From a virus (lineage: Duplodnaviria > Heunggongvirae > Uroviricota > Caudoviricetes), in the IMG/VR virus record IMGVR_UViG_2778261536_000005, positions 1 to 25,360 of that record: 25,360 bases of DNA, one strand, 5' to 3'. The translations under genes were made by a program, and so were the position numbers. A model generated the notes under the pieces. That model was given only the letters and a program-made list of their open reading frames with translations. It had not been told where the DNA came from and did not search any database. Positions 8,906 to 25,360 of the stretch are shown here, piece by piece; positions within the stretch are counted from its first letter, which is position 1, and the number at the start of each line of letters is the position of its first letter.

Positions 8906-9243
8906 GGTTTGTAGGCCTGTTCAAAAGTTGCAGAAAGATTAAATAACCCGGCACCAAGTGGCGTTGGTGTGTAGGTGTCGCAGCGGTAAAGCCCGAGAGG
9001 CTCAAGCGGCGGGCGCCACTGAAACGCCGTCACGCCCGCATGGCGATCGAGAAAGTCTTTAATCGCCCCGATATACGTTTCGGTACCGGTAAACTGGAGA
9101 GTCCATTTCTGCGAGCGGGGATTAATCCCGTCGCCGGAAACCTGCTGATATCCGTCACCGAACTGCGCGGTGCGCCGTCGGAATGTCACTTCCTGCTCCG
9201 CGTTCGGGCGCGGACACCAGCTGAATGTTTCTATAGCCATCAC
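8902..9243 (-). CDS. M: minor tail protein M
   Basis: 113 aa; FGDGYQQ motif as in lambda M; overlaps L and H by 4 nt each. Confidence 0.85.
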   Translation of the reverse strand: MMAIETFSWCPRPNAEQEVTFRRRTAQFGDGYQQVSGDGINPRSQKWTLQFTGTETYIGAIKDFLDRHAGVTAFQWRPPLEPLGLYRCDTYTPTPLGAGLFNLSATFEQAYKP

Positions 9244-11660: not shown

Positions 11661-11679
11661 AAACTCTCCGTTGGCGGCA

Positions 11680-12341
11680 TTATGTCCAGCTGGCTCTGGC
11701 TTCCTCTAACGAGATTGGTCCATCAGCAGCTTTGACTTTGGTAAAGTGAAGTGTGAAATCGGTCGGGTTGAATGGTGGGCGCTTGGGGTCTCTGTTAACG
11801 TTGGCTATCATGCTGCTCACCAGCCCGGCACCCCACTCAACCCGCAACATAGGGTTCAGACTCCCGTATCGTTCCCGGTACTTTGCCCAGAGTTGGGACT
11901 CTTTGAATGAGAGGACTTCCCGCGCTTCGGCGATTGTTCTGCCTCCGATTCCGTTGAGGACGAGCTCGCACCAGAATTCGTCTTCGGCGCTGAGCTCGAA
12001 GTCTTTCCCAGATCGTTAACTTCCTGAATGGCTAGAAGCAGTGCTACCGTCAGGCCGCCATCCAGTGCACCACGTTCAGGATCTGCCTCACCAGTAATGT
12101 CAGCCGGGGTGAAGATGGGTTTACCATGTTCATCGCAGATGGATGCGGCGATACGCCCTGCCACACCATCGACCTTACCACCAAAAGCCAGCACATCGGA
12201 CGTTGCTGTGTGATAACCCATCGGGCGAACATACACGGTCGCGGTGATTTTTTTATCGCCTTGCGTCCAGGTGATTTCTTTCTCAACCGGGCGACCGGTA
12301 AACGCGCCGGACTCCTTGAGTGCATCAAGTGTTAATTTCAT
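11680..12341 (-). CDS. T: tail assembly chaperone G-T fusion made by programmed -1 ribosomal frameshift
   Basis: Slippery heptamer G_GGA_AAG in the G zero frame (codons LGK, about 12003-12009); the -1 frame stays open for 108 codons and stops about 20 nt before the tape measure ATG. Confidence 0.7.
11856..12341 (-). CDS. G: tail assembly chaperone G (zero-frame product)
   Basis: 161 aa ORF directly downstream of the major tail gene; contains the slippery site; zero frame continues 47 Ser-rich codons past it. Confidence 0.8.
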   Translation of the reverse strand: MKLTLDALKESGAFTGRPVEKEITWTQGDKKITATVYVRPMGYHTATSDVLAFGGKVDGVAGRIAASICDEHGKPIFTPADITGEADPERGALDGGLTVALLLAIQEVNDLGKTSSSAPKTNSGASSSSTESEAEQSPKRGKSSHSKSPNSGQSTGNDTGV

Positions 12342-12343
12342 TA

Positions 12344-12378
12344 TTAATCCTGATTAATAAGGGCGTTGCCGCCCTGAT
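12344..12378 (-). other. hairpin between major tail protein gene and G
   Basis: AGGGCG-GCAA-CGCCCT perfect 6 bp stem right after the major tail stop, followed by A/U-rich sequence and the G RBS; possible attenuator or stability element. Confidence 0.35.
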
Positions 12379-12379
12379 T

Positions 12380-12880
12380 TTATGGGGTCACGACTTTTGG
12401 CACCCATACAGCAGAGCCGGAGCGCTGGATAGATGCAGAAGTAGAAACAACCGTGTTTGCTGCAAAATCAAACGGGAAGTCGGACACATAGCCTTTGAAT
12501 ACGAACCATGTGCGGCTATTAGGTAGCACCAGGCCATCGACTGCACCGGATGCACCATTTTCAGCCGCAGTTGGTGATGCGGTTCCGTCTGACCATCCAA
12601 TCGCGAAGGTCAGGTCCTGATCCTCTTCGTCGTCCGAAATGGACAGGTTGTAGAGCATGATGTGGCTGGTATTTTTAGGATCAGCGTTAAGCGTCAGTGA
12701 TGCTGTGCCAGGCGTTCGAAGACCACGCTTATAGCTGCGATCAAAGCGTTCAGAAAGACAGGTGTCTTCAATCTGGTCAGCCGGATTGCTGCCGGGTGAA
12801 AATGCAGTGATACATTCAACTTCGCTCACCTCGCCTTTTACGAGCACAAAGAGCTGCGTACCTTGCGTCAATACAGACAT
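12380..12880 (-). CDS. major tail (tube) protein
   Basis: 166 aa ORF in the conserved position upstream of G/G-T; strong GGAGA RBS. Confidence 0.75.
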
Positions 12881-12889
12881 TGTTATCTC

Positions 12890-12926
12890 CGGTCATAAAA
12901 AAACCGGCTCAAGGCCGGTGGTTGAA
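12890..12926 (-). terminator. intrinsic terminator-like hairpin upstream of the major tail gene
   Basis: Minus strand ACCGGC-CTTGA-GCCGGT followed by TTTTTTT, then RBS and ATG of the major tail gene. Confidence 0.55.
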
Positions 12927-12934
12927 TAATACGT

Positions 12935-13300
12935 TTATCGAGTGACTATCCAGTCAACATCGAATGAGTAGCGATAGCGCTTTGTTTCGGGGTCTCTTTC
13001 CTGTCCGCCCCAGCGCGTGATATGCGCGTGCGGCTCAATGGCATCCCGCAGCGCAGTAGCCACGGCAATCACTTCATCCACGGTGTCGGCATATGCATCC
13101 ACCTGCAGCGTGAAAAAGTCTGCGTCAGGGCGCTGGGCAATGTAGTTCTCTGGAGAACCGGTGATGTTCTGCCAGACCACATAGGGATAGACCACGTTGT
13201 CGTCCTGAATTCCGAAAGGATAAATTCTTACCGGATTGCTTCCGAGTAAGTCAGTGACTTCAGGACTCGACGCGCAAACAGAAAAAATAGGGGCAATCAT
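12935..13300 (-). CDS. tail terminator / tail completion protein (DUF3168-like)
   Basis: 121 aa ORF immediately upstream of the major tail gene; size and position fit this family; assignment by recall only. Confidence 0.55.
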   Translation of the reverse strand: MIAPIFSVCASSPEVTDLLGSNPVRIYPFGIQDDNVVYPYVVWQNITGSPENYIAQRPDADFFTLQVDAYADTVDEVIAVATALRDAIEPHAHITRWGGQERDPETKRYRYSFDVDWIVTR

Positions 13301-13845
13301 GCAGTGGTTCCTTTCTTCGTGGCCAGCCTGATAGCGCGATCAATAGCCTTTCCCATTTCCGTAGAAAAAACATTAATCACGTCATTATCTACGCCGTTCA
13401 TTGCAGGTCGGAGGATAGGCCGCGCTGATGTGTGCTCAGTACCAAACTCAAGAAAACGCCAGTACCAGGTATCTCCTCCTGGATTGCCTTTATCTCCTGA
13501 GGTTTTGTATGTTTTACCCGCTCTGCCTTTTCTGACGTTTGCCTTTGTATTTGCATACTGCCTGGCACCGCCCATTACCCCGACACGGAATGCCAGATCA
13601 CCTGTCCTGCGGAATTGCTTGCTGCTGAAGCTGGCGACGATATTTTTGTGGATTGCTTCTTTAGTCAGAGGATCATCAACTCGTGACGCGTTGCTTCTGG
13701 CCCGATCCCTTATAATGTTTGCCGCCTTACGCAATGCAAACCGACCGGCTTTATTACGGGTGACTTCTGATACGGCCTCCATTTTCCCAAGAAGTGATTC
13801 AAGCCCGGTAAGGCTTACCTCAACACTATCAGCCATCATTAACAC
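13297..13845 (-). CDS. HK97 gp10-family neck / tail-component protein
   Basis: 182 aa; C-terminal WRFLEFGT...ARPILRPA resembles the hallmark motif of the HK97 gp10 family. True start may be a few codons downstream. Confidence 0.65.
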   Translation of the reverse strand: MLMMADSVEVSLTGLESLLGKMEAVSEVTRNKAGRFALRKAANIIRDRARSNASRVDDPLTKEAIHKNIVASFSSKQFRRTGDLAFRVGVMGGARQYANTKANVRKGRAGKTYKTSGDKGNPGGDTWYWRFLEFGTEHTSARPILRPAMNGVDNDVINVFSTEMGKAIDRAIRLATKKGTTA

Positions 13846-14161
13846 CCTCAGAACAGGGAAGCGTCAGGTATTCACGTCCGCTTTTTGGATCGGGCAGAAC
13901 ACCATGGATGTTATACACAGCACCACGAAACAAGATGCGATGTTTTCTGGTAACTCCGGCACGGTAGCGAATAACAATACGGGTGGTTATTTCACCCTGA
14001 GAAGCCTGCGCAGCAATAAATTCACGCGCTGACAATGGTGAAACTTCGGCCCGGACAGTCGCAACATCTCGCCAGGTATTAATTACGGCTCCCGTTGTCG
14101 GGTTCTGCACTTTTACTGGCTCCTGCAGAGTAATCCTGTGGCGCAATTTCCCGGCCTGCAT
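13829..14161 (-). CDS. head-tail adaptor / head closure protein (Phage_H_T_join-like)
   Basis: 110 aa; N-terminal GKLRHRITLQ and internal IRYR motifs typical of this family. Confidence 0.75.
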   Translation of the reverse strand: MQAGKLRHRITLQEPVKVQNPTTGAVINTWRDVATVRAEVSPLSAREFIAAQASQGEITTRIVIRYRAGVTRKHRILFRGAVYNIHGVLPDPKSGREYLTLPCSEGVNDG

Positions 14162-14162
14162 G

Positions 14163-14360
14163 TTACCCCCTGGGTTTACCGCTCAGATAGGTTTGTTGCT
14201 CTGCAGTTTCATCTAGTTCACCAGCCAGCGACTGGATAATGACATCGCAAAGCGCCATATTTGATTCAGCCAGACGGCTTATCGCTTCCGTCTGCTCCCT
14301 CTGCGCTGTGATTTGTTCCCGTATCACTGCTATCAGTTCGTTTACCAGTTGCTCGTTCAT
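14163..14360 (-). CDS. small hypothetical helical protein in the head-tail joining region
   Basis: 65 aa ORF with ATGA coupling to the upstream ORF; acidic, predicted helical; no family recognised. Confidence 0.45.
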   Translation of the reverse strand: MNEQLVNELIAVIREQITAQREQTEAISRLAESNMALCDVIIQSLAGELDETAEQQTYLSGKPRG

Positions 14361-14593
14361 AAGCTATTTTTGCCCACTTTTTTATCCACTCGCTCCGTTG
14401 CGCGCATCCAGACGCGAATCGTTGCCTGCGCCGTTTCCGCGCCGCCTGAAAGCTGCTCTCTGCCGCTGATCCTCTTTACCTCAGCCGGGACCGGGTTGCC
14501 ACCTGTCCACGATTCAACCGGCTGACCAGATGGATCGCGCGAAGTCGTGAAGGTGAGAATTTTTACCCGGTTCCTGAATCGTCCAGGTTCCAT
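14357..14593 (-). CDS. short head-tail adaptor-like protein
   Basis: 78 aa; FRNRVKIL...W...AEV...SGRE...IRVW pattern resembles the N-terminal part of the adjacent adaptor family; coupled to flanking genes. Confidence 0.5.
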   Translation of the reverse strand: MEPGRFRNRVKILTFTTSRDPSGQPVESWTGGNPVPAEVKRISGREQLSGGAETAQATIRVWMRATERVDKKVGKNSL

Positions 14594-14919
14594 CAGGAGC
14601 CCTCCTCTGATTCGGCTTTTCCGCGCCAGTTGCGATGAATGAACATCATGCGTTCGGCGGCTGCATTCTCATAAAGCTGCACTTCGCTTTGTGCCGTCCG
14701 GTGTTCAAACATGTCAGCAAAGACAAGCAGAACGGCGCCCTTAACGGCGGCAGGAATATCAGCCGCAACCTTCCATGCTGGTTCATCGCACCAGCGCATG
14801 CAGTAGTCAAAAGCGGCCTGGGCGTACAGCGTGATCAGCTCGTCCCTGTCGTCTTCCTCAAACTCAATCTGCTGCTTAAACAGACTGAGGGAAATTACAT
14901 CCAGAACATCTATCGCCAT
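14593..14919 (-). CDS. head-tail connector protein (gp6-like)
   Basis: 108 aa acidic ORF immediately after the major capsid gene, the conserved gp6 position in HK97-type gene order. Confidence 0.7.
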   Translation of the reverse strand: MAIDVLDVISLSLFKQQIEFEEDDRDELITLYAQAAFDYCMRWCDEPAWKVAADIPAAVKGAVLLVFADMFEHRTAQSEVQLYENAAAERMMFIHRNWRGKAESEEGS

Positions 14920-14921
14920 AC

Positions 14922-14952
14922 GTTAAAAGGGCGGGTTTCCCCGCCCCCTCCA
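14922..14952 (-). terminator. intrinsic terminator after the major capsid gene
   Basis: Minus strand GGGCGGG-GAAA-CCCGCCC (7 bp GC stem, GNRA loop) followed by UUUU, directly after the capsid stop codon. Confidence 0.65.
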
Positions 14953-16110
14953 TCATGAGCCAGAAGAGAAGGTGCCCTTGATGATTGCTGTCGGGCGATA
15001 ATGCGCCAGCGCCAGACGCTCTTCGCACAGGATGGTCAGCATGTTTTTCACGAAGTTATCGCGGTCTTCACGGCTAACTTCCACGGTGGCATCCATGCGA
15101 TCCCAGACCTGTGAGGCCATATCGAAACCGCCTACGGTAAAGGTGCCGGCGGCCTGCGCCTTAGTCGGAACCACTGGCAAGCCCCACATGATGTTACTGG
15201 TGAATGCCTGAGGACCACCGAAGATATAGCGGCCTTCATTGTCTTTCAGCAACGCGATGTTGTGCCAGTCGCGCGGGTTCAGGACGATACCGGAAGCGCT
15301 GAACTCAGACTCGGTCACCTGATAAATAGCGTGAGCGATAATGTCAGCGCGGGTGTCGCCGGTGGCATTCAGCGAGGTGTCATAGGCGGTTGCCACTTTG
15401 TTCAGCCCTTCCAGGTTATCCCCGGTACCGTCGCCGTTCAGCAGCTGGCCCTCTTCCTTCAGTGCCAGGCCGTACATGAGGCGGTTGTTAATGTAGGACT
15501 GAAGCATTGGCGCATCATCCATCACCTGACGTGATGCCTGCACCCAGTGCGCGATGGTCTTCACGTTCGCGGTTTGTTTGCTGAAGGTGATATCCGATTC
15601 TGGCTTCAGTGCTTTCTCTGCCACCACGTCGGCGTTATTGGTAAACACCTCTTCACGCACATATTCCAGAGCGTTACTGGAAGTGCGGCCCTGAGCCAGC
15701 AGATCACGAATGGTAAGACGGCGCAGGCCTGGCATGATGATGCCTGGGATCTGCATAGGCTGGATCAGTGAGCCAGCCGAATCAGCGTCACTGCCTAGTG
15801 ACTTGTTAAACGTTTTAGCGCCAAAGGTGCCCTGTTTACCGTCCCATGACTTAATAAGCTCTTCAGCAGCCCGTTCAGAGAAGGATTTCTTCTCACCAGG
15901 ATTCTCAGCGCCGGATGCCAGTTTCTGTTCCAGATCGAAGAGGCGAGTGCCGGATTTGGTCAGCTCTTCCTGTACTTTCATCAGGTCGGACTGCAACTGT
16001 TTGGAAACCTGGCCTGTGCTTTCGATTTCTGCTTTCTGCGCATCGAAAAGCTGGGTCATTTTCTGCTGGGATTCTTCGATAGCTTTTTGAATGAGAGCGA
16101 GTTCAGACAT
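14953..16110 (-). CDS. major capsid protein, HK97 family
   Basis: 385 aa; closely matches phage HK97 gp5 as I recall it (N-terminal delta domain, SKQTANVK and NFVKNMLTILCEERLALAHYRPTA regions). Confidence 0.95.
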   Translation of the reverse strand: MSELALIQKAIEESQQKMTQLFDAQKAEIESTGQVSKQLQSDLMKVQEELTKSGTRLFDLEQKLASGAENPGEKKSFSERAAEELIKSWDGKQGTFGAKTFNKSLGSDADSAGSLIQPMQIPGIIMPGLRRLTIRDLLAQGRTSSNALEYVREEVFTNNADVVAEKALKPESDITFSKQTANVKTIAHWVQASRQVMDDAPMLQSYINNRLMYGLALKEEGQLLNGDGTGDNLEGLNKVATAYDTSLNATGDTRADIIAHAIYQVTESEFSASGIVLNPRDWHNIALLKDNEGRYIFGGPQAFTSNIMWGLPVVPTKAQAAGTFTVGGFDMASQVWDRMDATVEVSREDRDNFVKNMLTILCEERLALAHYRPTAIIKGTFSSGS

Positions 16111-16112
16111 AA

Positions 16113-16802
16113 TTATTTACCTAAGTTAGAAGGGAAAGATTTGATGCTCTGAAGCAGAGCGTTTATTTGTGCTTCGTTTCCGTCGCCCTCGGACTCGCTC
16201 CGAATCGCTGACTTAAACCGGGCAATTAGCCCAACTGCCTGTGATTTGGTGAGGCCGACTGAATCCCTCAGCCAGTTCTCCACATCACGAATCGTTTCAA
16301 TGCCATCGACACTTTTCATGGCTGCGATGCCAGCCTGTTCGTTGGCGGGGAAAGTGCAGACGCTGATTTCTCGCAGAGCCTGGATATTCTTAAAAATGCG
16401 GCCTGTTGGAATGATGGTGTAATCGTCTTTCGAAACGGAAAAGCCAACCGACATACCTTCAACCGTACCGTGCTGCATTGCCGCTTTCAGGTCAGCGGCG
16501 CCGCTGTGTCCTGGGGTAAGTTGACCGCGCACATACAGGCCTTTTTCGTCTTCAGCCAGGCTGTCCCATTTGCCAACCGGCAGTTCCCACGTCCTGTGGT
16601 TAAAAAACATCGCCACTTTTCGGGTCTGGTTCGCCAGCGCGTTTTTAAACGCCCCGGGCAGAATGATGTCGCCAGCGGAATCGGTGTTATTAAAAACAGA
16701 GGCGTAGCCTTCAAAAATCCCCTGTTTACCGTCACCGGTGAATTTGATTTCTGTCTCGTCGAAGGACAGCGTTTTTACGATTTCAGGCATTACGGCCCCC
16801 AT
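16113..16802 (-). CDS. prohead maturation protease, HK97 family
   Basis: 229 aa between portal and capsid genes; HK97 gp4-like features. Confidence 0.9.
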   Translation of the reverse strand: MGAVMPEIVKTLSFDETEIKFTGDGKQGIFEGYASVFNNTDSAGDIILPGAFKNALANQTRKVAMFFNHRTWELPVGKWDSLAEDEKGLYVRGQLTPGHSGAADLKAAMQHGTVEGMSVGFSVSKDDYTIIPTGRIFKNIQALREISVCTFPANEQAGIAAMKSVDGIETIRDVENWLRDSVGLTKSQAVGLIARFKSAIRSESEGDGNEAQINALLQSIKSFPSNLGK

Positions 16803-16807
16803 AAAAA

Positions 16808-18082
16808 TTAAGCCCCGTTATTACGGGGCTCTTTGTTGGTTCCTAAATCGGTGATCGGCACGTATTGCGACTGGCGCATTGCCACATCGCCACCCGGCAA
16901 TGGCGGGAGGTTGTCCGTTCGTCGCATCTCGTTGATGGTGCGTAGCCCTGCCTCTCCCATTGCCTTCATAAAGGCAGCGCGGGATGCCGAATCGCCCCTC
17001 AGCAGGCCGTCGAGGTTGTGCTCAGCATGAATGCGGCCAACATCCTTAGCAGGAATAAGCCACCGCTGAATGCTGTTTTCCCACCTGGAGATATAGGGCT
17101 GCAGGGTGTACTGCAGGAAGCCGAGATTCTGCTGCTCGATGCCCGATCCCCAGCTCGTTGATTTCTCGACGTCGCCGACAAGGTGAGGCGGTACGCCAAA
17201 GAATCGCGCCAGTTCACTTACCTGAAATTTTCGGGACGCCATCATTTCGGCATCCTGCGGAGTTACGCCAATTGCCGATGTAGAAAAACCCGCTTCCAGA
17301 ATCCAGAGGCGTTTTTTTACCGGGCCGCCGGCGATCTCTTTGAAGTTCTCTTCGACCTGGGAGCGCTGCTGTTCAGTTAGCACTTTTTCGCCAGTTGAGA
17401 GGATTTGCGGAGACTTGGCGCCGTTGGCAAAGAAATCTCGCTGCTGGTCCTCCATCGCAACTGCCACACCTGCCGATTTACAGGCAAAAGCAATGGGTGA
17501 CAGGCCTACAAGCCCGGTGAATCCGAAGCCTTTAAGGTGAAAAATCTCTTTCTGCGAAAAGTCGGCGTATTCGCTGTCGCGTTGATAGCGATAAACCACT
17601 TTTTTTCCGACGAGCTTCACATCCATATTGGCAGACTGAAGCGGGAGAAGGCTGATCACGTCACCTGCGCTGTTGCGGTCCACAAGTGCATATGCGTTAC
17701 CGTAGAAACAGAGCTGCATCGTCATGGCCTCCCTGAATTCTTGGGCGGTCATGTACTGATTCGGTGAGTAGCGCAGCAGTCGCGCCAGTGGATTGCTCAA
17801 ATCCACTTTTTTACGGTTGTCATTCTGGTCTGTTTCGAAGACATCAAGCGGTAAGCATGCCGTGAGCGTTGAAATCAGGCTCACGCAGCGCCACACAGTC
17901 GAAATTTGCAGTATCCGTTCATCGTTAATGGATGAATCGCCCAGGTGTCCGTGGGCCGAAACAGGCCCCGTCTGTGAGCCCTGATTTGGGGTGACTAAAC
18001 GCCCGCCGACAAACCAGGACTGCAGCCTTGCCCACCAGCCGTTATTGGTTCGCAGGTCAATCGTGTATTTAGGTTCTTCCAT
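16808..18082 (-). CDS. portal protein, HK97 family
   Basis: About 424 aa between TerL and protease. Track start at 18085 is a GTG; the ATG at 18082 overlaps the TerL stop (TGATG) and is preferred. Confidence 0.9.
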   Translation of the reverse strand: MEEPKYTIDLRTNNGWWARLQSWFVGGRLVTPNQGSQTGPVSAHGHLGDSSINDERILQISTVWRCVSLISTLTACLPLDVFETDQNDNRKKVDLSNPLARLLRYSPNQYMTAQEFREAMTMQLCFYGNAYALVDRNSAGDVISLLPLQSANMDVKLVGKKVVYRYQRDSEYADFSQKEIFHLKGFGFTGLVGLSPIAFACKSAGVAVAMEDQQRDFFANGAKSPQILSTGEKVLTEQQRSQVEENFKEIAGGPVKKRLWILEAGFSTSAIGVTPQDAEMMASRKFQVSELARFFGVPPHLVGDVEKSTSWGSGIEQQNLGFLQYTLQPYISRWENSIQRWLIPAKDVGRIHAEHNLDGLLRGDSASRAAFMKAMGEAGLRTINEMRRTDNLPPLPGGDVAMRQSQYVPITDLGTNKEPRNNGA

Positions 18083-19596
18083 CACATGCTCAGCGGTCGG
18101 AAAATGAAGTCGTCGAAGTCACCACCCTGTTCGGTAACTTCCCCATTAGCAGCACCAACGGACATTGTCATTGCGACCATGCCATCAATACGGCCCGTTG
18201 CTTTGGATTTATCGAGCTTGCGGTTGCCAGCAGCATCTTTCACCACCACCGCATTCACAGCACACATCGTTAATACGGGGTGCATGCCATGCCTCACGCG
18301 CCCGTTAAGCATCAGAGACTCCAGCGTGTCTACAGCTGGCCCCATATCCTTAAAGCCCTGGCCGAACTCGACCAGCGGGAGGCTCAGCCCAATGGCATCG
18401 GCATCCTTCCTGAACTGGTCAATGCGCCAGCGGTCAAAAGCCATCGAGGTAAGGTCGAAATCACCGATAATTTCAGCGATATCCGCAACGACGAATGAGT
18501 AATCCACCGAAGCTCCTGGCGTGGTGCGCAGCAGCCCCTCCCTCACCCAAACGTCATAGGGTGCTCGGTCCGTTTTGGTTCGCTCTTCAAGAGTCTTTTG
18601 CGGTGTCCAGAAGAAGGGGAAAACATCCCAGACACCATCATCTGCTTCACCAGCGATAACCAGCGCCGTTAAGTCGTTCCTGGCTGACAGATCCAGCCCC
18701 GCGTACCACTTCCTCGGGGTGTTAATCGGCATCTCTCCGCAAAGCTCCCACACGCTGCGGGAGATAAACGGCGATACGGTAGACACGCGCTGATTGAGGT
18801 TGAGGTTTCGGAAGGTGTTTTCGAAGCTTGGCATTCGGCCAGCTTTCTCAGCCTGGCGCGCCATGTCTTTTTCTGACCTGAATGTTCCCAGTGCCGGGTT
18901 CGCAGCCAGCCAGGACTCGCGTTTACTGATATCAGCGTCTTTTGGCGCTTCATAAACGTGGCACACGATGTGCGGATCTTTCGATTTGACCGCATCATCA
19001 ATCCAGATGCTAAGCAGGTCAGCATCGTTTGCTGCCTGCGTACTGATAACGATTAGCAGCGGGTTTTCATGAGCCCCCTGCGCCGTAGTTATTGCATCGA
19101 TAAAATCATCCTGCGGGCCCCTAACCTGCCCTGTTTCATCGAGAATGGCCAGAATGGGGGAAAGGCCGTGCGTCGTCTTACCTTCTGCGGATAAAGCCTT
19201 GTATTCGACGTTACACGGCAGGCCGATCAGCTTTTTGCCGCTGGGCGTAATGTGCACAATCTCCTGCAGCTTGGGGTTCAGGTTAACCATCTTCACCGCG
19301 AGGTTAAAAACGATGGCCGCCTGTTCCCGGCTGAGTGCACCGCTGACAATCTGCGTGTTCTGCACCGCTTCAGGCCCCACCAGGTGAGCCAGCAGAATTC
19401 CGGCAATCAGGCCAGTCTTACCATTTTTTCGGGCGATGGAGAGGATCGCCATATCCGTTCCGGCTGGATTGTCGTAAACCGCCAGGATGAAATCTTTCTG
19501 AAAGGGGTCCAACCGCATAGGTTGGCCGATAAGCTTGCCTTCTGGCACGATGCAAAAGCGCTCAATGAACGCTATTACACGCTCACCTCGCGTCAT
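18082..19596 (-). CDS. terminase large subunit
   Basis: 504 aa, with an ATPase region (ARKNGKTGL Walker A-like, ILDE Walker B-like) and a C-terminal nuclease region. Confidence 0.95.
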   Translation of the reverse strand: MTRGERVIAFIERFCIVPEGKLIGQPMRLDPFQKDFILAVYDNPAGTDMAILSIARKNGKTGLIAGILLAHLVGPEAVQNTQIVSGALSREQAAIVFNLAVKMVNLNPKLQEIVHITPSGKKLIGLPCNVEYKALSAEGKTTHGLSPILAILDETGQVRGPQDDFIDAITTAQGAHENPLLIVISTQAANDADLLSIWIDDAVKSKDPHIVCHVYEAPKDADISKRESWLAANPALGTFRSEKDMARQAEKAGRMPSFENTFRNLNLNQRVSTVSPFISRSVWELCGEMPINTPRKWYAGLDLSARNDLTALVIAGEADDGVWDVFPFFWTPQKTLEERTKTDRAPYDVWVREGLLRTTPGASVDYSFVVADIAEIIGDFDLTSMAFDRWRIDQFRKDADAIGLSLPLVEFGQGFKDMGPAVDTLESLMLNGRVRHGMHPVLTMCAVNAVVVKDAAGNRKLDKSKATGRIDGMVAMTMSVGAANGEVTEQGGDFDDFIFRPLSM

Positions 19597-19602
19597 AGTC
19601 TT

Positions 19603-20088
19603 TTATCCGTGCTTGGGAAAGGCGATCAGGTTATCGTCCTGGTCCTGATGCTCGTTTTTGGTATTCCGTGCATCACGATCGTTCTGATTACGTTTCTTCT
19701 GGTCGCGACTTTCGCCGTTGGTTGCGTGGGAGTGGATCTGGAGGTCGCGGCGCTGAGCCAGGATAGTTCGTTGTAGCTCAACAATTTGCTTGCGGAGGTC
19801 TTTTATAAGGCCTTCGTCTCGCTCCTCCCCGCGTATGCGCTCTTCTTTGCGTAAATCCTTGCGTAAAACGGTGATATAGAGCTGATTATTAGCAAGTTCT
19901 ACGGCGGCTAGAAGGTCGGCAGGCGTCCAGCTGTCCAGAGCTTTCGATCTGATATTGTCATGCCAGAATGGTTCGGCTTTTTTCTCCAAACCTGCATGGG
20001 ACGGCGGATCGATGGTGTCCACAGCTGCATTTTTCATGGCCTGAACCGCTGCCGCCGAACTGTCGGAACGGATTCGTTTATCTGCCAT
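19603..20088 (-). CDS. terminase small subunit
   Basis: 161 aa basic/acidic ORF immediately upstream of TerL and next to the candidate cos region. Confidence 0.85.
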   Translation of the reverse strand: MADKRIRSDSSAAAVQAMKNAAVDTIDPPSHAGLEKKAEPFWHDNIRSKALDSWTPADLLAAVELANNQLYITVLRKDLRKEERIRGEERDEGLIKDLRKQIVELQRTILAQRRDLQIHSHATNGESRDQKKRNQNDRDARNTKNEHQDQDDNLIAFPKHG

Positions 20089-20089
20089 A

Positions 20090-20273
20090 TGTCAACACCT
20101 TAAAACTAAAAAAATCGGGTTAGCGTTAAATTCAAACTTTGGCGGCGGTCATTTGGGGCAAAGGTTTTGAAGATTTGATCCCCCCCCCTGCCCTGAATGC
20201 GATTCATTCTCATTTGATATCGTTGCATTTGAAATGATTTCACATGATAGATAATCTACTTGCCGCCGCCGCG
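20090..20273. other. candidate cos / terminase recognition region
   Basis: Non-coding segment between the HNH-coupled ORF and TerS with oppositely oriented GC-rich elements (TTGGCGGCGGTC and TTGCCGCCGCCGCG), a C8/G8 homopolymer and AT-rich stretches; the cut site cannot be fixed from sequence alone. Confidence 0.35.
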
Positions 20274-20477
20274 CTATGCCGAATGTTTGTCTACCTGTTC
20301 GAGTTTGTGATCGCCTTTCCCATACTCGGACCACACATGTCCTGACACGGTCAATGTCGGTACGTCCTCGCCTAAGGTGTGGGAGAACTGGATAGACGTT
20401 ACGCGCTTCATCTCCACGCCATCAATCGCCAGCTGAACAAACTTACCGTCTCGGTATTCAATGATGAGGTCTTTCAT
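20274..20477 (-). CDS. hypothetical small protein translationally coupled to the HNH gene
   Basis: 67 aa ORF whose ATG overlaps the HNH stop (TAATG); ends at the candidate cos region. Confidence 0.5.
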   Translation of the reverse strand: MKDLIIEYRDGKFVQLAIDGVEMKRVTSIQFSHTLGEDVPTLTVSGHVWSEYGKGDHKLEQVDKHSA

Positions 20478-20818
20478 TACGTGCTCCAGTGAGACGCAGG
20501 ATCGAGCGGGTAGCCGTTGGCATCACAACCGATTACCGCGCCGCTCTTCTCCATTCTCTGTTTCGTTGAGTCATGATGCGCTTTGCACAGTGGCTGCCAG
20601 TTCTCTTTACTCCAGAACAGGAGCTGTGCTTTCGATATGGCCAGAGGGTTACCTGACTTAAGCGCATCTTTCAGTTTGTGGGGCACGATATGGTCGACCA
20701 CCGTTGCTGGTGTTATGCGCCCCTGCTGCTCGCACATCACACACAGTGGGTGCTGCTGGAGAAAACGCAGACGGGCCTTATCCCATCGGCTGCCATATAC
20801 GCGGGGCTCTTTGTTCAT
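20477..20818 (-). CDS. HNH endonuclease associated with the terminase (HK97 gp74-like)
   Basis: Cys/His motifs (CVMC...VDHIVPH...CKAHHD). Track ORF starts at 20830; the ATG at 20818 (MNKEPR...) has a GGAGA RBS and is preferred. Confidence 0.85.
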   Translation of the reverse strand: MNKEPRVYGSRWDKARLRFLQQHPLCVMCEQQGRITPATVVDHIVPHKLKDALKSGNPLAISKAQLLFWSKENWQPLCKAHHDSTKQRMEKSGAVIGCDANGYPLDPASHWST

Positions 20819-21301
20819 GCCAGTCTCCATGCACGGCGGCGTTCTGGTTCATGACCAGTTTGTAAATCTCTAACTGGAATTTCTGTTCTTCAGTCATGAG
20901 AATAATCTCTGCCATTGTTGGCTCCGTTTATCCGTTAAAAGGGATATCAGTTAAGTTATCCCGTGTAGGGTATAAGCTATTGTCGAGACCACTCATTGAA
21001 TGGTCTCTGCAATAACCGATGTCTTTCCATCAGTCCGCCACCACAAAGAATCTTTTTTGCCATAAGGCAGGAGGTTCATCTTTCAGTGGCTGCCAGTGTT
21101 ATTTCCCCACTTACTGGCTTGGGTTGTTTCGCGGTGCTGCCGTTAACTGGTGGCGCACAGATTTAGTTAAATCCGTTCTCGCATGATCCAGCTTTTACAT
21201 ACCTGGATTGTGAGGGATGTAAATCACGGTTTCATTATCAAGCCCACCCGTAGATGGGCTTTGGAATGAAGAGTTGTTATGAAAATTGCTCTAAACAAGC
21301 A

Positions 21302-21790
21302 TTAATAGCCATCAGAAGTAATCGCTACAGATTTCAATCCCTCAATGTCATCCTTGGACAGGGCGAACCATTCACCGTGCTTTCTCTTTGCGGCAAATTT
21401 GCGATGAAGCATGTTTTCAGTTTCTCTTCCACCAGGGATCAGGCACTCAAGCTTCAAGCAGTCTGGTCCAGAGTTGCCAAGCGATTTGATGCGTTGTGGA
21501 ATGTTGGATGAATACCCAATTTTGGTTAGCCCAGTTTTCTTCGATGACAAAACGTATACCTGAGGAGGTTCTTTTCTCTGGTCTTCCATTACACGTCTCA
21601 TTGTTGCCCTAAGTCCGCCGTGCATCAGCATTTCAACAAAGAACGCTGACCGAACACCTGACGACTTAAGCATGCCAGAAAATTCACTTGCCAATTCCAT
21701 TAACTCTGCGATGTTTTCAGGAACTTTTTGGCAGTTATCTTCCTTGTATAAGGAAATCATTCTTTGAAGCTTTTCTTCTAATTGGTTCAT
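21302..21790 (-). CDS. GIY-YIG-like / T5orf172-domain protein (putative nuclease), moron
   Basis: C-terminal VYVLSS..TGLTKIGYSSN...RIKSL...HRKF...GEWF fits a GIY-YIG/T5orf172 pattern; about 80 aa helical N-terminal region; AT-rich. Track ORF begins at a GTG (21826); the ATG at 21790 is preferred. Confidence 0.65.
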   Translation of the reverse strand: MNQLEEKLQRMISLYKEDNCQKVPENIAELMELASEFSGMLKSSGVRSAFFVEMLMHGGLRATMRRVMEDQRKEPPQVYVLSSKKTGLTKIGYSSNIPQRIKSLGNSGPDCLKLECLIPGGRETENMLHRKFAAKRKHGEWFALSKDDIEGLKSVAITSDGY

Positions 21791-21929
21791 AGCGTCTTTA
21801 CCTTTTAGAAAGTGAGCCTGTCTCACAGAAAAGCCGCCCGAGAGAGGTCGCCACCTATAACGGCATTTCTCAGGCTCGCTTACTGAAAGGCTCTCGTTAA
21901 TATGCGCGTGAGATGCGCGTTTACTGCGG

Positions 21930-21960
21930 ACATAAAAAAGCCCCGCATCGCGAGGCTCAT
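21930..21960 (-). terminator. intrinsic terminator downstream of Rz
   Basis: Minus strand AGCCTCGC-GAT-GCGGGGCT followed by TTTTTT, 30-60 nt after the Rz stop. Confidence 0.55.
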
Positions 21961-21988
21961 TAAATGGACTTTGTGATTTGCAAAAAAA

Positions 21989-22450
21989 TTATTTCAGGCA
22001 TTGCGTCCTGATGTACTCCTGCAGGTAGTTAACCTGCGCGGTTATCCTGTCGATTCCACTTCGGAGACGGTAATAATTGAGTTCAGCATCTGCTGTAAGT
22101 CCTGGGCTTTCTCCATCGCCCATGCCGCTGGCTCCGGTCGTTGACTTTGCACAGGTGGCGGCGACTTGCAGGCGCTTACGACCAGCAGAAACATCAGCAC
22201 GGAGACTTTCGATAGTCGCGTTAGCATCAGCAAGCTCCTTTGTATATCTGGCATCGAGTTCTGCTACGTCACGTTGACGCTTCTGCATATCAGAGATCGT
22301 CGCCATAGCCGAATCTAATGCCATAGCGTTTTCGTCGCGCTGTTTTTTGTATTCAATGGCTTTATTGTGGTAATGATTAGCTGACCAGACGAGAGAACCG
22401 AATAAAGTCAGGAGGAAAGCAGAAATAACCAGCTTATAGCGAAGTTTCAT
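21989..22450 (-). CDS. Rz: i-spanin Rz
   Basis: Close match to lambda Rz as recalled (AVNHY...AQRD...MQKRQRDVAELDARYTKELADA). Track ORF begins at a TTG (22483); the ATG giving MKLRYKL (153 aa) is preferred. Confidence 0.9.
   Translation of the reverse strand: MKLRYKLVISAFLLTLFGSLVWSANHYHNKAIEYKKQRDENAMALDSAMATISDMQKRQRDVAELDARYTKELADANATIESLRADVSAGRKRLQVAATCAKSTTGASGMGDGESPGLTADAELNYYRLRSGIDRITAQVNYLQEYIRTQCLK
22042..22227 (-). CDS. Rz1: o-spanin Rz1 lipoprotein, embedded in Rz in the +1 frame
   Basis: Embedded ORF with signal peptide and lipobox (LMFLLVVSAC) followed by a Pro-rich stretch; start taken at the internal Met MLTRL. Confidence 0.75.
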   Translation of the reverse strand: MLTRLSKVSVLMFLLVVSACKSPPPVQSQRPEPAAWAMEKAQDLQQMLNSIITVSEVESTG

Positions 22451-22910
22451 TAACCACCCCGCCAGCTTCTTTGAATTTGGCAATCAGACTATCGATCTTG
22501 TGTTCATACTGACCGTAGCCAGCACCGGGCAATGAAGCCCAAATATTGCTGCAACGATCAATAGCCTGACGAATATCACCCCGATCAATCAGCGGCAGCG
22601 CGCCGCGTTCTTTAATCTGCTGTAACGCCACCGCATCCTGGCTTTTCGGAGAGAAGTCTTTCAGGCCAAGCTGCTTACGATAGGCATCCCACCAACGGGA
22701 AAGAAGCTGGTAGCGTCCGGCGGCTGTTGATTTGAGTTTCGGGTTTAGCGTGACAAGTTTGCGAGGGTGATCGGAGTAATCAGTGAATAGCTCTCCGCCA
22801 ACAATGACGTCATAACCATGATTTCTGGTTTTCTGACGTCCGTTATCAGTTCCCTCTGACCATGCCAGCATATCGAGGAACGCCTTACGTTGATTATTGA
22901 TTCCCACCAT
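22434..22910 (-). CDS. R: endolysin R (lambda-type lytic transglycosylase)
   Basis: 158 aa, near-identical to lambda R as recalled ([49 protein letters not shown]...). Confidence 0.95.
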
Positions 22911-23217
22911 CTTCTACTCCGGCTTTTTTAGCAGCGAAGCGTTTGATAAGCGAACCAATCGAGTCAGTACCGATGTAGCCGATAAACACGCTCGTTATAT
23001 AAGCGAGATTGCTACTTAGTCCGGCGAAGCCGAGAAGGTCACGAATGAACCAGGCGATAATGGCGCACATCGTTGCGTCGATTACTGTTTTTGTAAACGC
23101 ACCGCCATTATATCTGCCGCGAAGGTACGCCATTGCAAACGCAAGGATTGCCCCGATGCCTTGTTCCTTTGCCGCGAGAATGGCGGCTAACAGGTCATTT
23201 TTTTCTGGCATCTTCAT
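22894..23217 (-). CDS. S: holin S (class I, dual-start Met1-Lys2-Met3)
   Basis: 107 aa, near-identical to lambda S as recalled; overlaps R by 17 nt as in lambda. Confidence 0.95.
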
Positions 23218-23507
23218 GTCTTACCCCCAATAAGGGGATTTGCTCTATTTAATTAGGAATAAGGTCGATTACTGATAGAACAAATCCAGGCTACTGTGTT
23301 TAGTAATCAGATTTGTTCGTGACCGATATGCACGGGCAAAACGGCAGGAGGTTGTTAGGGCAACCTCATGCCACCCGCTTTCACGAAGCCAGCCATTGCG
23401 CTGGTTTTCTTTTATGCAAAGCACACCGCACCGTAGCCACAGCGGATAAGTTGATTATTTTTGTCTGTCTGGTATTTGGTTTGATGTGCTTTCAGAAAGG
23501 CCGTGCT

Positions 23508-23542
23508 TAAAACGCAAAAAACCCCGAGATATTAACTCAGGG
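23508..23542 (-). terminator. tR'-like late terminator downstream of pR'
   Basis: Minus strand CCCTGAG-TTAATAT-CTCGGGG followed by TTTTTT, about 60 nt downstream of the pR'-like promoter. Confidence 0.6.
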
Positions 23543-23574
23543 CTTTATTTAACGAGTGAATTTATCCATCGTTG

Positions 23575-23612
23575 ATGTCAAATTTACCCAACTTTATTCA
23601 AAAAGTCAATAT
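23575..23612 (-). promoter_or_regulatory. late promoter pR' with qut (Q utilisation) elements
   Basis: Minus strand TTGACT-17 bp-TAAATT followed by TTGACATCAACGATGG, matching lambda pR' and its AACGAT pause element as recalled; just downstream of Q. Confidence 0.6.
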
Positions 23613-23651
23613 CATGCCGTTAATATGTTGCCATCCGTGGCAATCATGCTG

Positions 23652-24275
23652 CTAACGTGTGACCGCATTCAAGATATTGTCTGCGATTGACTCTTCCTTG
23701 TGGCATTGCACCACCAGAGCGTCATACAGCGGCTTAACAGTGCGTGACCAGGTGGGTTGAGTAAGGTTTGGGATTAGCATCGTTACAGCGCGATATGCGG
23801 CGCTTGCTGGCATCCTTGAATAGCCGACACCTTTGCATCTTCCGCACTCTTTCTCAACAACTCTCCCCCACTGCTCTGTTTTTGCTATATCAACCGCGCG
23901 GCCTGTACCATGGCAATCTCTGCATCTTGCCCCCGGCGTCGCGGCACTACGGCAATAATCCGCATAAGCGAATGTTGCGAGCACTTGCAGTACCTTTGCC
24001 TTAGTATTTCCTTCAAGCTTTGCCACACCACGGTATTTCCCCGATACCTTGTGTGCAAATTGCATCAGATAGTTGATAGCCTTTTGTTTGTCGTTCTGGC
24101 TGAGTTCGTGCTTACCGCAGAATGCAGCCATACCGAATCCGGCTTGTGATTGCGCCATCCCCATAGCAGCCATCACATCAGTACCGGAAAGAGAGTCAGA
24201 AGCCGTGGCCCGTGGTGAGTCGCTCATCATCGGGCTTTTTGGCGAATGAAATTTAGCTACGCTTTCGAGTCTCAT
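23652..24275 (-). CDS. Q: late antiterminator Q (lambda type)
   Basis: 207 aa with zinc-binding Cys cluster (CRDCHGTG...CGRCKG); matches lambda Q as recalled; located upstream of pR' and S. Confidence 0.9.
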
Positions 24276-24937
24276 GCGCCTTCTCCCTGTACCTGAATCA
24301 ATGTTAGGTTTCCGCAGAACACTGCGCCGGTATCGATATACATTTGGTTGGCAAACTTGAGTGGTTTCACTGCTGGCGTATGACCAAAGATGAACGTGTC
24401 CGCGCCTTTGATTTCTTTCACGATCCCGTTTTGTGAGTTGCTGATTCGTTCGCGGTTCCAGATTACCTGCTGATGATCAACTGGCTTTCCAAACTCGTAT
24501 TCGTCACAAGGATAATCGGCGTGGCAGATGACATATTTTTTATCTTTGCTCACCAGTTCGATGATTAACGGAAGTTCATCTGCTTTATGGGCAAGAGCTT
24601 TAGCCAGAATTTCTTTGTCGTAATCGAGATTAAAGAACCAGCCACCGCCATTAAGCATCCAGTGATTGACGTTTCCGCGCTCTGATAAGCCATCAATCAT
24701 CATTTGCTCATGGTTTCCACGTACAGCTCTGAACCAGGGGAATGTGATTAATTCCAGGCATTCGACGTTCTCTGTACCGCGATCGACCAAATCGCCAACC
24801 GAGATAAGCAGGTCTTTTTTGGTGTCGAATCCTATCGTCTCCAGTTTTTTCATCAGGTTCGTGTAGCATCCGTGCAGATCGCCAACTACCCAAATATTTC
24901 GGTATTTGCTGCCATCAATTTTTTCGTAATAGCGCAT
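24272..24937 (-). CDS. Ser/Thr protein phosphatase (lambda PPase, NinI-like)
   Basis: GDLHG, GDLVDRG and GNHE metallophosphatase motifs. Track ORF has a 25 aa N-terminal extension overlapping ninH; the start at MRYYEK (221 aa) is preferred. Confidence 0.9.
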
Positions 24938-25121
24938 CTCTTTCACTCCATCCGCGATGAACCATGAGAACGTCGTTGACGATGGCGTGCATTTTCCCGT
25001 CTTTATCATCAACGTATTTTCTGACCGTACCGCGACTACATTTCAGTCTGCGTGCTACTTCTGTCTGGTTTCCGTATGCTTCAACGAGCATGTCTGGAAT
25101 GGTTTTTACTGAGAACGTCAT
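24915..25121 (-). CDS. ninH: NinH
   Basis: 68 aa ORF matching lambda NinH as recalled, in the expected position between NinG and the phosphatase. Confidence 0.8.
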
Positions 25122-25360
25122 GCGGCCTCACTTCTGCTATTTCGCAGGTCTTTGAGTTTCTGCTGATACTCCGCCTTGATGGCCCTGCACTCTTCGACAG
25201 TCCAGCGATGGCGGTTATGGTTTGATTCGATTTCGTCTACTGCTTCCTGCCCGATGCGATTAATCAGTTCGACGCGATACGGAACGAGATTTCCGCTTTT
25301 GTGCTGGTTGCACACCACGCACTGAGAGATCCCCTCATAATTTCCCCAAAGCGTAACCAT
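25118..25360 (-). CDS. ninG: NinG (Rap-like), C-terminal fragment truncated by the window edge
   Basis: ORF runs to the window end; Cys-containing C-terminal region and position upstream of ninH fit lambda NinG; the 5' part lies outside the window. Confidence 0.7.

Follow-up and report, generated by a model that had tools for sequence, protein, structure and literature searches.

The Seg proteins of phage T4 and the endonuclease I-TevI possess C-terminal DNA-binding modules (NUMOD, helix-turn-helix, zinc finger) in addition to canonical GIY...YIG motifs. The gene considered here lies at 21302-21790 on the minus strand of a stretch of 25,360 nucleotides (nt) of Caudoviricetes DNA (positions 1 to 25,360 of IMG/VR record IMGVR_UViG_2778261536_000005), hereafter referred to as the window. 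Its product, identical to gp64 of phage HK106, is a predicted two-domain GIY-YIG nuclease that differs from Seg and I-TevI in possessing K-I-G as its second motif and in carrying its extra domain, which is no known DNA binder, at the N-terminus. Closer in type are the T5orf172 genes of vibriophage ICP1. The T5orf172 domain of ICP1 Odn (gp88) is an active nuclease that depends upon the putatively equivalent Glu (E180A; PMC8263062), and T5orf172 and AP2-associated HNH proteins represent two putative homing-endonuclease families enriched in ICP1-like phages (PMC10448857). The HK106 protein and those of ICP1 have in common a T5orf172-type GIY-YIG domain with conserved Arg and Glu and a two-domain layout with the nuclease in a terminal position; the genes have in common sporadic presence, decayed alleles and the adjacency of essential genes (PMC8263062, PMC10448857). 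However, the ICP1 proteins have recognisable DNA-binding domains (CapR-like zinc fingers, DUF723, RepA_N), whereas the second domain of the HK106 protein is a near-neutral three-helix bundle without known relatives, and the HK106 gene is a single-copy gene of a temperate lambdoid phage, placed after a shared leader in a slot dedicated to swapping. Activity is proven for Odn and predicted here. The role of T5orf172 proteins, whether in homing, as a competition weapon or in counter-defence, has so far been addressed mainly in the lytic ICP1.

The reading favoured here, to which a probability of roughly 0.4 is attached, is that the gene encodes a late-expressed nuclease, homing-endonuclease-like or serving competition, which would cut the DNA of related phages or mobile elements. 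Transcription would occur late, by Q-antiterminated read-through of the terminator that follows the lysis gene Rz, on a transcript that would also serve the downstream HNH and terminase genes, and translation would be throttled by a leader hairpin sequestering the Shine-Dalgarno sequence. The protein would then cut non-self DNA, at the same locus or close to it, in the genomes of related phages, whether co-infecting or resident, or in other mobile elements, and cutting would either favour inheritance of the cassette, in the manner of a free-standing homing endonuclease, or harm competitors. Several signatures of homing genes are present: the gene is optional between conserved flanks, lies beside essential packaging genes, is sporadic among relatives and exists in degenerate copies, while genes for HNH_3 and HNH_3+AP2 endonucleases follow the same leader. 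Among the anti-phage, counter-defence and homing-like roles proposed in an earlier note made from the window alone, the evidence leans toward a homing-like or competition function. The gene by itself is one more uncharacterised T5orf172/GIY-YIG nuclease, already labelled as such in databases; the most interesting result of the follow-up, above the nuclease itself, is the constant structured frame of the slot in which it lies.

The gene and its predicted product

The whole of 21302-21960 belongs to the minus strand and comprises the open reading frame (ORF), a leader of approximately 150 nt and an intrinsic terminator after Rz. The gene and the parts of its product are as follows.

21302..21826, minus: ORF as called mechanically, GTG start, 174 amino acids
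21302..21790, minus: nuclease ORF, the variable cargo cassette of the post-lysis slot, 162 amino acids, equal to HK106 gp64; stop codon at 21302-21304
21575..21790, minus: N-terminal domain (residues 1-72), predicted three-helix bundle, isoelectric point (pI) 5.8, without a family-invariant residue
21305..21574, minus: C-terminal T5orf172/MUG113-type GIY-YIG nuclease domain (residues 73-162), by Pfam match and predicted fold
21554-21556, 21521-21523, 21515-21517 and 21491-21493, minus: codons of the invariant residues Y79, K90, G92 and R100
21416-21418, 21404-21406 and 21371-21373, minus: codons of the invariant residues E125, H129 and E140

The ATG at 21790 is the likely start of the gene, being preceded at 8-10 nt by AAAGG and coinciding with the start of the RefSeq coding sequence, which likewise yields a product of 162 amino acids. 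This product is 100% identical to HK106 gp64 (YP_007151734), named "GIY-YIG nuclease family protein" in RefSeq, so that the domain assignment is already public and is not new; PHROGs places the protein in phrog_4284, function unknown. The G+C content of the gene is 0.431, with 0.442 at third codon positions, against 0.517 for the whole window. The description of the gene as markedly AT-rich holds in so far as the neighbouring genes range from 0.49 to 0.55; the departure is nevertheless moderate, a value as low being found in 1.8% of 489-nt windows. An 85 amino acid antisense ORF (21254-21511, plus strand) overlaps the 3' end of the gene; nothing suggests that it is a real gene.

Profile searches bore out the T5orf172/GIY-YIG domain that had been read from the motif spacing. 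Residues 78-151 matched the Pfam models MUG113 (PF13455; 56.1 bits with the cut-off at 22.3, E 5.7e-15) and T5orf172 (PF10544; 42 bits with the cut-off at 20, E 1.4e-10), whereas the generic GIY-YIG model PF01541 reached only E 0.18. No other Pfam family was matched by the 162 amino acid protein, and no transmembrane segment, DUF4041, RepA_N, sensor or DNA-binding domain was found; a scan of NCBIfam gave no match, and among solved structures the family profile matched at chance level only (E >1). The motif set noted earlier is real, comprising V-Y79-V-L, K90-I-G92-Y-S-S-N, R100, H129 and G-E140-W-F. The GIY-like V-Y79-V and the YIG-like K90-I91-G92 are separated by 11 residues and the second motif begins with Lys rather than Tyr. 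By the order of the motifs, R100 and E140, the putative counterparts of the superfamily's helix-1 catalytic Arg and metal-binding Glu, appear equivalent to R27 and E75 of I-TevI, and E140 to E180 of Odn. Structure prediction with AlphaFold2 on the family alignment (mean predicted local distance difference test score, pLDDT, 87) gave three N-terminal helices at residues 3-20, 23-43 and 49-71 with pLDDT of about 90, followed by a beta-beta-alpha-beta-alpha unit that matches the order of the GIY-YIG core, in which helices flank an antiparallel sheet of three strands. The unrelated helical N-terminal region of about 80 amino acids that had been proposed is thus recovered, at 72-76 amino acids counted from the ATG or about 84 from the GTG. 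Taken together, the profile matches and the model indicate that the protein is a predicted T5orf172/MUG113-type GIY-YIG endonuclease with its conserved Tyr, Arg and Glu intact.

In a profile search of 1.84 billion cluster representatives the C-terminal domain was found in 38,373 proteins and the N-terminal domain in only about 15 representatives. Invariant among the latter are Y79, K90-I91-G92, R100, E125, H129, E140, W141 and F142; R100 and E140 show no variation among 23 and 15 homologues. When the N-terminal domain alone was compared with 5.8 billion proteins, only the same gene and truncated fragments of it were retrieved. The features of this domain suggest an adaptor or oligomerisation module that evolves fast, and not a standard DNA-binding domain. 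Locus searches with two distant relatives of the same two-domain layout yielded no matches in one case (P0019) and relatives of the C-terminal domain only in the other (P0055).

Homologues in the Salmonella phages epsilon34 (gp68), g341c (gp64) and NM-3 share the two-domain layout (161 amino acids; MUG113 and T5orf172) and the slot after Rz and a terminator, with leader and trailer. They are only 32% identical to the HK106 protein and are functionally uncharacterised as well; gene 68 is not discussed in the genome paper of epsilon34, and a preprint on phage-inducible chromosomal islands of the capsid-forming kind (cf-PICIs) that used HK106 does not mention the gene.

A cargo slot between a conserved leader and a conserved trailer

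The constant parts of the slot flank the ORF on both sides.

21788..21895 (to about 21935), minus: conserved structured leader, from alignments and covariance model R1
20916..21268, minus: conserved trailer, with the leader the constant frame of the slot; apparently non-coding and strongly structured

The window is homologous to phages with different cargo up to 21783-21786, 4-7 nt inside the ORF, and again from 21268, 34 nt past the stop codon. As these edges fall at the start codon and just past the stop codon, the variable unit is the ORF alone. The gene had been described as inserted between the lysis cassette and the packaging genes; judged by the edges, the slot is instead filled by exact ORF-for-ORF replacement between the conserved leader and the conserved trailer.

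The occupants of the slot are diverse. KilA-N genes are present in HK544 and HK97, Rha in Gally and P22, and an HNH_3 endonuclease with a regulator in Dewey. The Rha occupants combine Phage_pRha with ORF11CD3. Gathering of IMG/VR loci by means of the Rz protein gave 80 loci, with the leader present in 60; the first gene after it was Rha-like in 28 and T5orf172 in 12 (three of them truncated), with KilA-N genes in at least six by BLAST and in further loci by Pfam. The Rha and KilA-N genes of P22, phi80, HK97 and HK544 resemble the HK106 gene in slot, leader, size (145-200 amino acids) and dispensability, but encode DNA binders rather than nucleases, with no sequence or profile similarity to the HK106 protein. 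According to the account in PMC4936722, which cites Henthorn and Friedman (1995), rha of P22 and phi80 is a late-operon gene that harms phage growth once control by integration host factor is lost.

These occupants raise the alternative that the HK106 protein has been domesticated within the 'Bro network' and, lacking catalysis, binds DNA or regulates, in analogy to Rha, to KilA-N or to the PLE repressor CapR, itself descended from T5orf172 homing endonucleases. A single leader common to all cargo types would suit such a role, as would the frequent occurrence of T5orf172 alongside Bro-N and KilA-N and its original prediction as a DNA binder (PMC8096241); E140, the predicted metal-binding Glu, is moreover replaced (E140G) in one cluster representative (P0002, Salmonella, 114 members). 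However, across homologues with as little as 21-25% identity Y79, R100 and E140 never vary, a constancy that would be surprising were catalysis dispensable. The counterpart of CapR in those endonucleases is their DNA-binding domain rather than T5orf172 (PMC8096241), and alignment of the family with the Rha and KilA-N cargo using hhalign revealed no relation (probability ~0.1%). A regulatory role is accordingly considered unlikely.

Counter-defence genes have also been found in the slot. In Louie (locus L012, 639-1109) the occupant annotated as 'anti-CRISPR protein' matches the Pfam family Tad2-like (Thoeris anti-defence 2; E 9e-27), from which it follows that the slot is able to hold counter-defence cargo; the Louie leader is short, at 78 nt, and model R1 finds no conserved hairpin at that locus. 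The phi80 slot contains the Tai/Ati defence and counter-defence pair (PMC11364771). Cargo of this kind lends itself to a further explanation, namely a counter-defence or anti-satellite nuclease resembling Odn, its N-terminal domain steering it during lytic growth to a host defence element, a satellite (PICI, cf-PICI or P4-like) or a rival prophage. In Odn, a T5orf172 domain joined to a borrowed specificity domain destroys a satellite, and similar fusions occur in coliphages (PMC8263062, PMC10448857). A position in the late operon suits a function in lytic growth, and the combination of a fast-evolving N-terminal domain with a fixed nuclease core is what would be expected of a specificity module. 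Against this, no homologue of the N-terminal domain was detected in any other protein, satellite or host, and the domain is neither the satellite-derived RepA_N of Odn nor any DNA-binding domain in Pfam. No defect has been reported for an HK106 derivative lacking the gene, in laboratory strains only (PMC11364771), and nonsense and truncated alleles are common. Such a role is regarded as possible but on the improbable side.

In 14 carriers the identity of the ORF is 99.2-99.8%, a single nucleotide (R61M) being the difference from the window in most. R61 is confined to the window and HK106 copies, all others having M61. The adjoining leader is 86-93.5% and Rz 86-90% identical in carriers of the near-identical ORF, and the lysis and packaging modules of the carriers are sometimes unrelated (HK97-type, DLP12/lambda-type, Chlobot-type). 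On this evidence the gene can be described as a non-essential, horizontally mobile cargo of lambdoid temperate phages, the cassette having lately spread between backbones. Three sub-lineages, at 100%, 49% and 32% identity, share the slot and leader, and their presence behind one leader indicates long residence in the slot. Decay is evident in the same nonsense change (E25*) in loci L009 (4001-4489) and L067 (3159-3647), in a copy broken after nt 265 (L059, 3159-3423) and in two frameshifted proteins (P0012 and P0015).

In a set of 50,697 phage records the gene occurs in two phage genomes, HK106 (two records) and Chlobot; of 5426 complete E. coli genomes, 82 carry it, each in one copy. In HK106, He et al. 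(2024) exchanged an ORF for atiEcA and obtained a viable, inducible and plaque-forming phage (PMC11364771). Their primers HK106-orf64-3m and HK106-orf64-4c abut 21788-21814 (minus) and 21276-21301 (plus), flanking the ORF exactly, and the segment replaced was therefore precisely 21302-21790. Since the replacement phage is inducible and forms plaques, the gene is dispensable under laboratory conditions. With this replacement and so narrow a distribution, the possibility that it is a conserved core gene of its lineage, by which the earlier note would have been refuted, does not hold. HK106 is a tractable temperate coliphage for which a viable replacement of the ORF already exists and is thus a convenient system in which to test the roles of T5orf172.

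The same data bear on a possible accessory role in packaging or late DNA processing, in the manner of the adjoining HK97 gp74-type HNH endonuclease that assists terminase. In the late operon the gene does directly precede the HNH, terS and terL genes. However, relatives that share the packaging module, such as HK97, HK022 and HK544, nearly all lack it; it is present in phages with unrelated terminases, and HK106 remains viable after its replacement (PMC11364771). A packaging helper is highly improbable, being effectively refuted by the dispensability and distribution of the gene.

The leader, which fills the approximately 150 nt from the terminator to the ATG, is found again in 224 phage records and stands before cargo genes of the T5orf172, Rha, KilA-N and HNH types alike. 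According to RNAalifold it would fold into a long, imperfect hairpin in which the basal helix is formed by CCUUU paired with the AAAGG Shine-Dalgarno sequence of the cargo. Covariance model R1, built on eight sequences, gave 32 matches in 47 sources, from which 24 distinct sequences were aligned. Paired cells amount to 91.5% in this alignment as opposed to 79.6% in shuffles, changes on both sides are present in 14 of 24 pairs, and double-change cells number 79 against 35 expected; the observed covariation values were reached in none of 500 shuffles, and sliding the 3' partners out of register reduced pairing to 59% or less. These values should be read with the alignment having been fitted to the model and with only about six independent leader types represented; the single-sequence fold has a z-score of only -1.9. 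Owing to its many G-U pairs, the structure is sense-strand-specific. Covariation thus supports the model in which the leader hairpin sequesters the predicted ribosome-binding site of the cargo genes. The leader may represent an undescribed cis-regulatory RNA for potentially toxic phage genes, acting for example through RNase III, temperature or a trans-acting factor, and its occurrence before different types of cargo suggests a common regulatory logic. Locus L017 has a second copy (631-734) at a different place in its late region, after another terminator and before an HNH_3+AP2 endonuclease gene.

The trailer, of approximately 350 nt, is present in 206 phage records, including HK97, HK022, P22 and Sf6, and contains no sense-strand ORF of more than 28 amino acids. 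Its predicted folding energy is -124.8 kcal/mol, compared with -90.4 ± 5.5 for shuffles, with z-scores of -6.26 in the sense and -3.92 in the antisense orientation. Versions of the trailer average 93% identity and are mosaic with indels, and are too alike for a covariation test. A search of Rfam over 20000-23700 at E values up to 1 returned no family for either leader or trailer.

A more general proposal, put forward tentatively and doubtful as it stands, is that lambdoid late operons hold a riboregulated plug-in slot whose T5orf172 cargo is an active homing or competition endonuclease that has swept, at 99% identity or more, through diverse backbones. The frame of such a slot may consist of the terminator, the hairpin leader of about 105 nt that hides the ribosome-binding site and the structured trailer; its cargo may be interchangeable DNA-targeting genes (T5orf172 nuclease, HNH or HNH-AP2 nuclease, Rha, KilA-N), and the backbones swept may include the unrelated HK97, lambda and P22 types. 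If confirmed, the frame would explain both the clean exchange of potentially toxic DNA-targeting genes at ORF boundaries in lambdoid phages and the tight translational control over them.

Probable transcription of the locus and proposed role of the nuclease

Three neighbouring features define the transcriptional setting.

21958..21938, minus: intrinsic terminator directly after Rz; stem of 9 bp with 6 G-C pairs, then TTTTTTAT
21989..22450, minus: Rz-like spanin, the last gene of the lysis cassette (context)
20477..20818, minus: HNH endonuclease, homologue of HK97 gp74; the next gene downstream, ahead of terS and terL

The terminator had been predicted in the earlier note, and the Rz terminator is also annotated in HK106 and HK544. 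It is the only terminator nearby and lies upstream of the gene, no terminator-like site being found after the stop codon. No sigma-70-like promoter was identified on either strand of 20000-23600 (4.2 expected by chance) by a simple consensus scan, which a weak or non-sigma-70 promoter could escape. The simplest reading is that the gene would be transcribed within the late operon by Q-modified polymerase passing the Rz terminator, because it has neither promoter nor terminator of its own and the HNH, terS and terL genes downstream need late expression. For the same reason, within the limits of the consensus scan, a classical moron in the sense of an autonomous unit was rejected. The view of the interval between Rz and the packaging genes as a moron site therefore survives in part: it is a hot spot for cargo (Rha, KilA-N, HNH, Tad2-like, Tai/Ati) without being the site of a classical moron, and one moron-like trait, a base composition off that of its surroundings (0.431 as opposed to 0.517), is present.

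The earlier note regarded this as the most defence-like gene in the window. The corresponding explanation is a true moron expressed in the lysogen, whose product would cut incoming phage DNA as a defence or superinfection-exclusion nuclease, like SNIPE and PD-T4-3. The nuclease core does bring a match to a defence profile in PADLOC-DB 2.0; it is the only one, to PDC-S57 (E 8.3e-6), and is limited to profile positions 3-83 of 212. SNIPE has an N-terminal transmembrane segment and DUF4041 before its GIY-YIG domain (PMC13190303). In contrast, the HK106 protein has no transmembrane segment, DUF4041 or other sensor domain by Pfam and no defence-island context, and its gene belongs to a phage late operon. 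The consensus scan found no promoter-like site from the upstream terminator to the ATG, nor elsewhere in 20000-23600, the Shine-Dalgarno sequence is predicted to be hidden in the conserved hairpin, and nonsense alleles persist in prophages. The defence-like character is thus only partly borne out and has little support, and expression as a defence system of the lysogen is judged quite unlikely.

The homing-like or competition role favoured here has to be set against several observations of its own. A promoter that had escaped the scan would count against it, as does the failure to recognise a sequence-specific DNA-binding domain in the protein: the N-terminal domain has a near-neutral pI of 5.8 and no Pfam match, and a structure search with it returned generic helical bundles only. 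No extended co-conversion tract is evident, upstream identity dropping within about 60-75 nt of the ATG, and in the 5426 E. coli genomes the gene is always single copy, with no expansion in any genome. Furthermore, Rha and KilA-N cargo are likewise 100% identical across differing leader variants; because these genes swap equally cleanly, homologous recombination in the flanks would be enough to explain mobility without homing.

A site further upstream in the late region (23518-23588, minus) gave a weak match to the Rfam family isrJ (28 bits against a gathering threshold of 37, E 0.026). A hairpin resembling a terminator (23546..23518) occupies the same site, a little downstream of where the late promoter PR' is annotated in HK106; the match is probably the short promoter-proximal late transcript, not a true isrJ.

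Genomic context and mosaic joints

The region 20089-25321 is 99.98% identical to the right end of HK106 (NC_019768) and 14402-20088 is 99.5% identical to its left end, by which alignment the window is a Hendrixvirinae genome resembling HK106 and runs through the point at which the ends of the record join.

A 45 amino acid ORF (20778-20915, minus) was also observed, of which the first ~27 codons represent the 5' end of a P22-like DUF2560 gene with counterparts in epsilon34 (gp69), Sf6 (gene 67) and HK620 (hkbM); the segment 20834-21152 is 97% identical to epsilon34. By these similarities 20778-20915 marks a mosaic joint between a post-lysis region of the P22 type and an HNH-terminase module of the HK97 type.

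The tape-measure and central tail region (9241-14401) differs from HK106 and is nearest to HK022 and mEpX2 (98.6%), with a tape-measure protein of 806 amino acids in the window compared with 1088 in HK106. Since the tail region is unlike that of the HK106 record, the window represents a mosaic relative of HK106 rather than the deposited genome.

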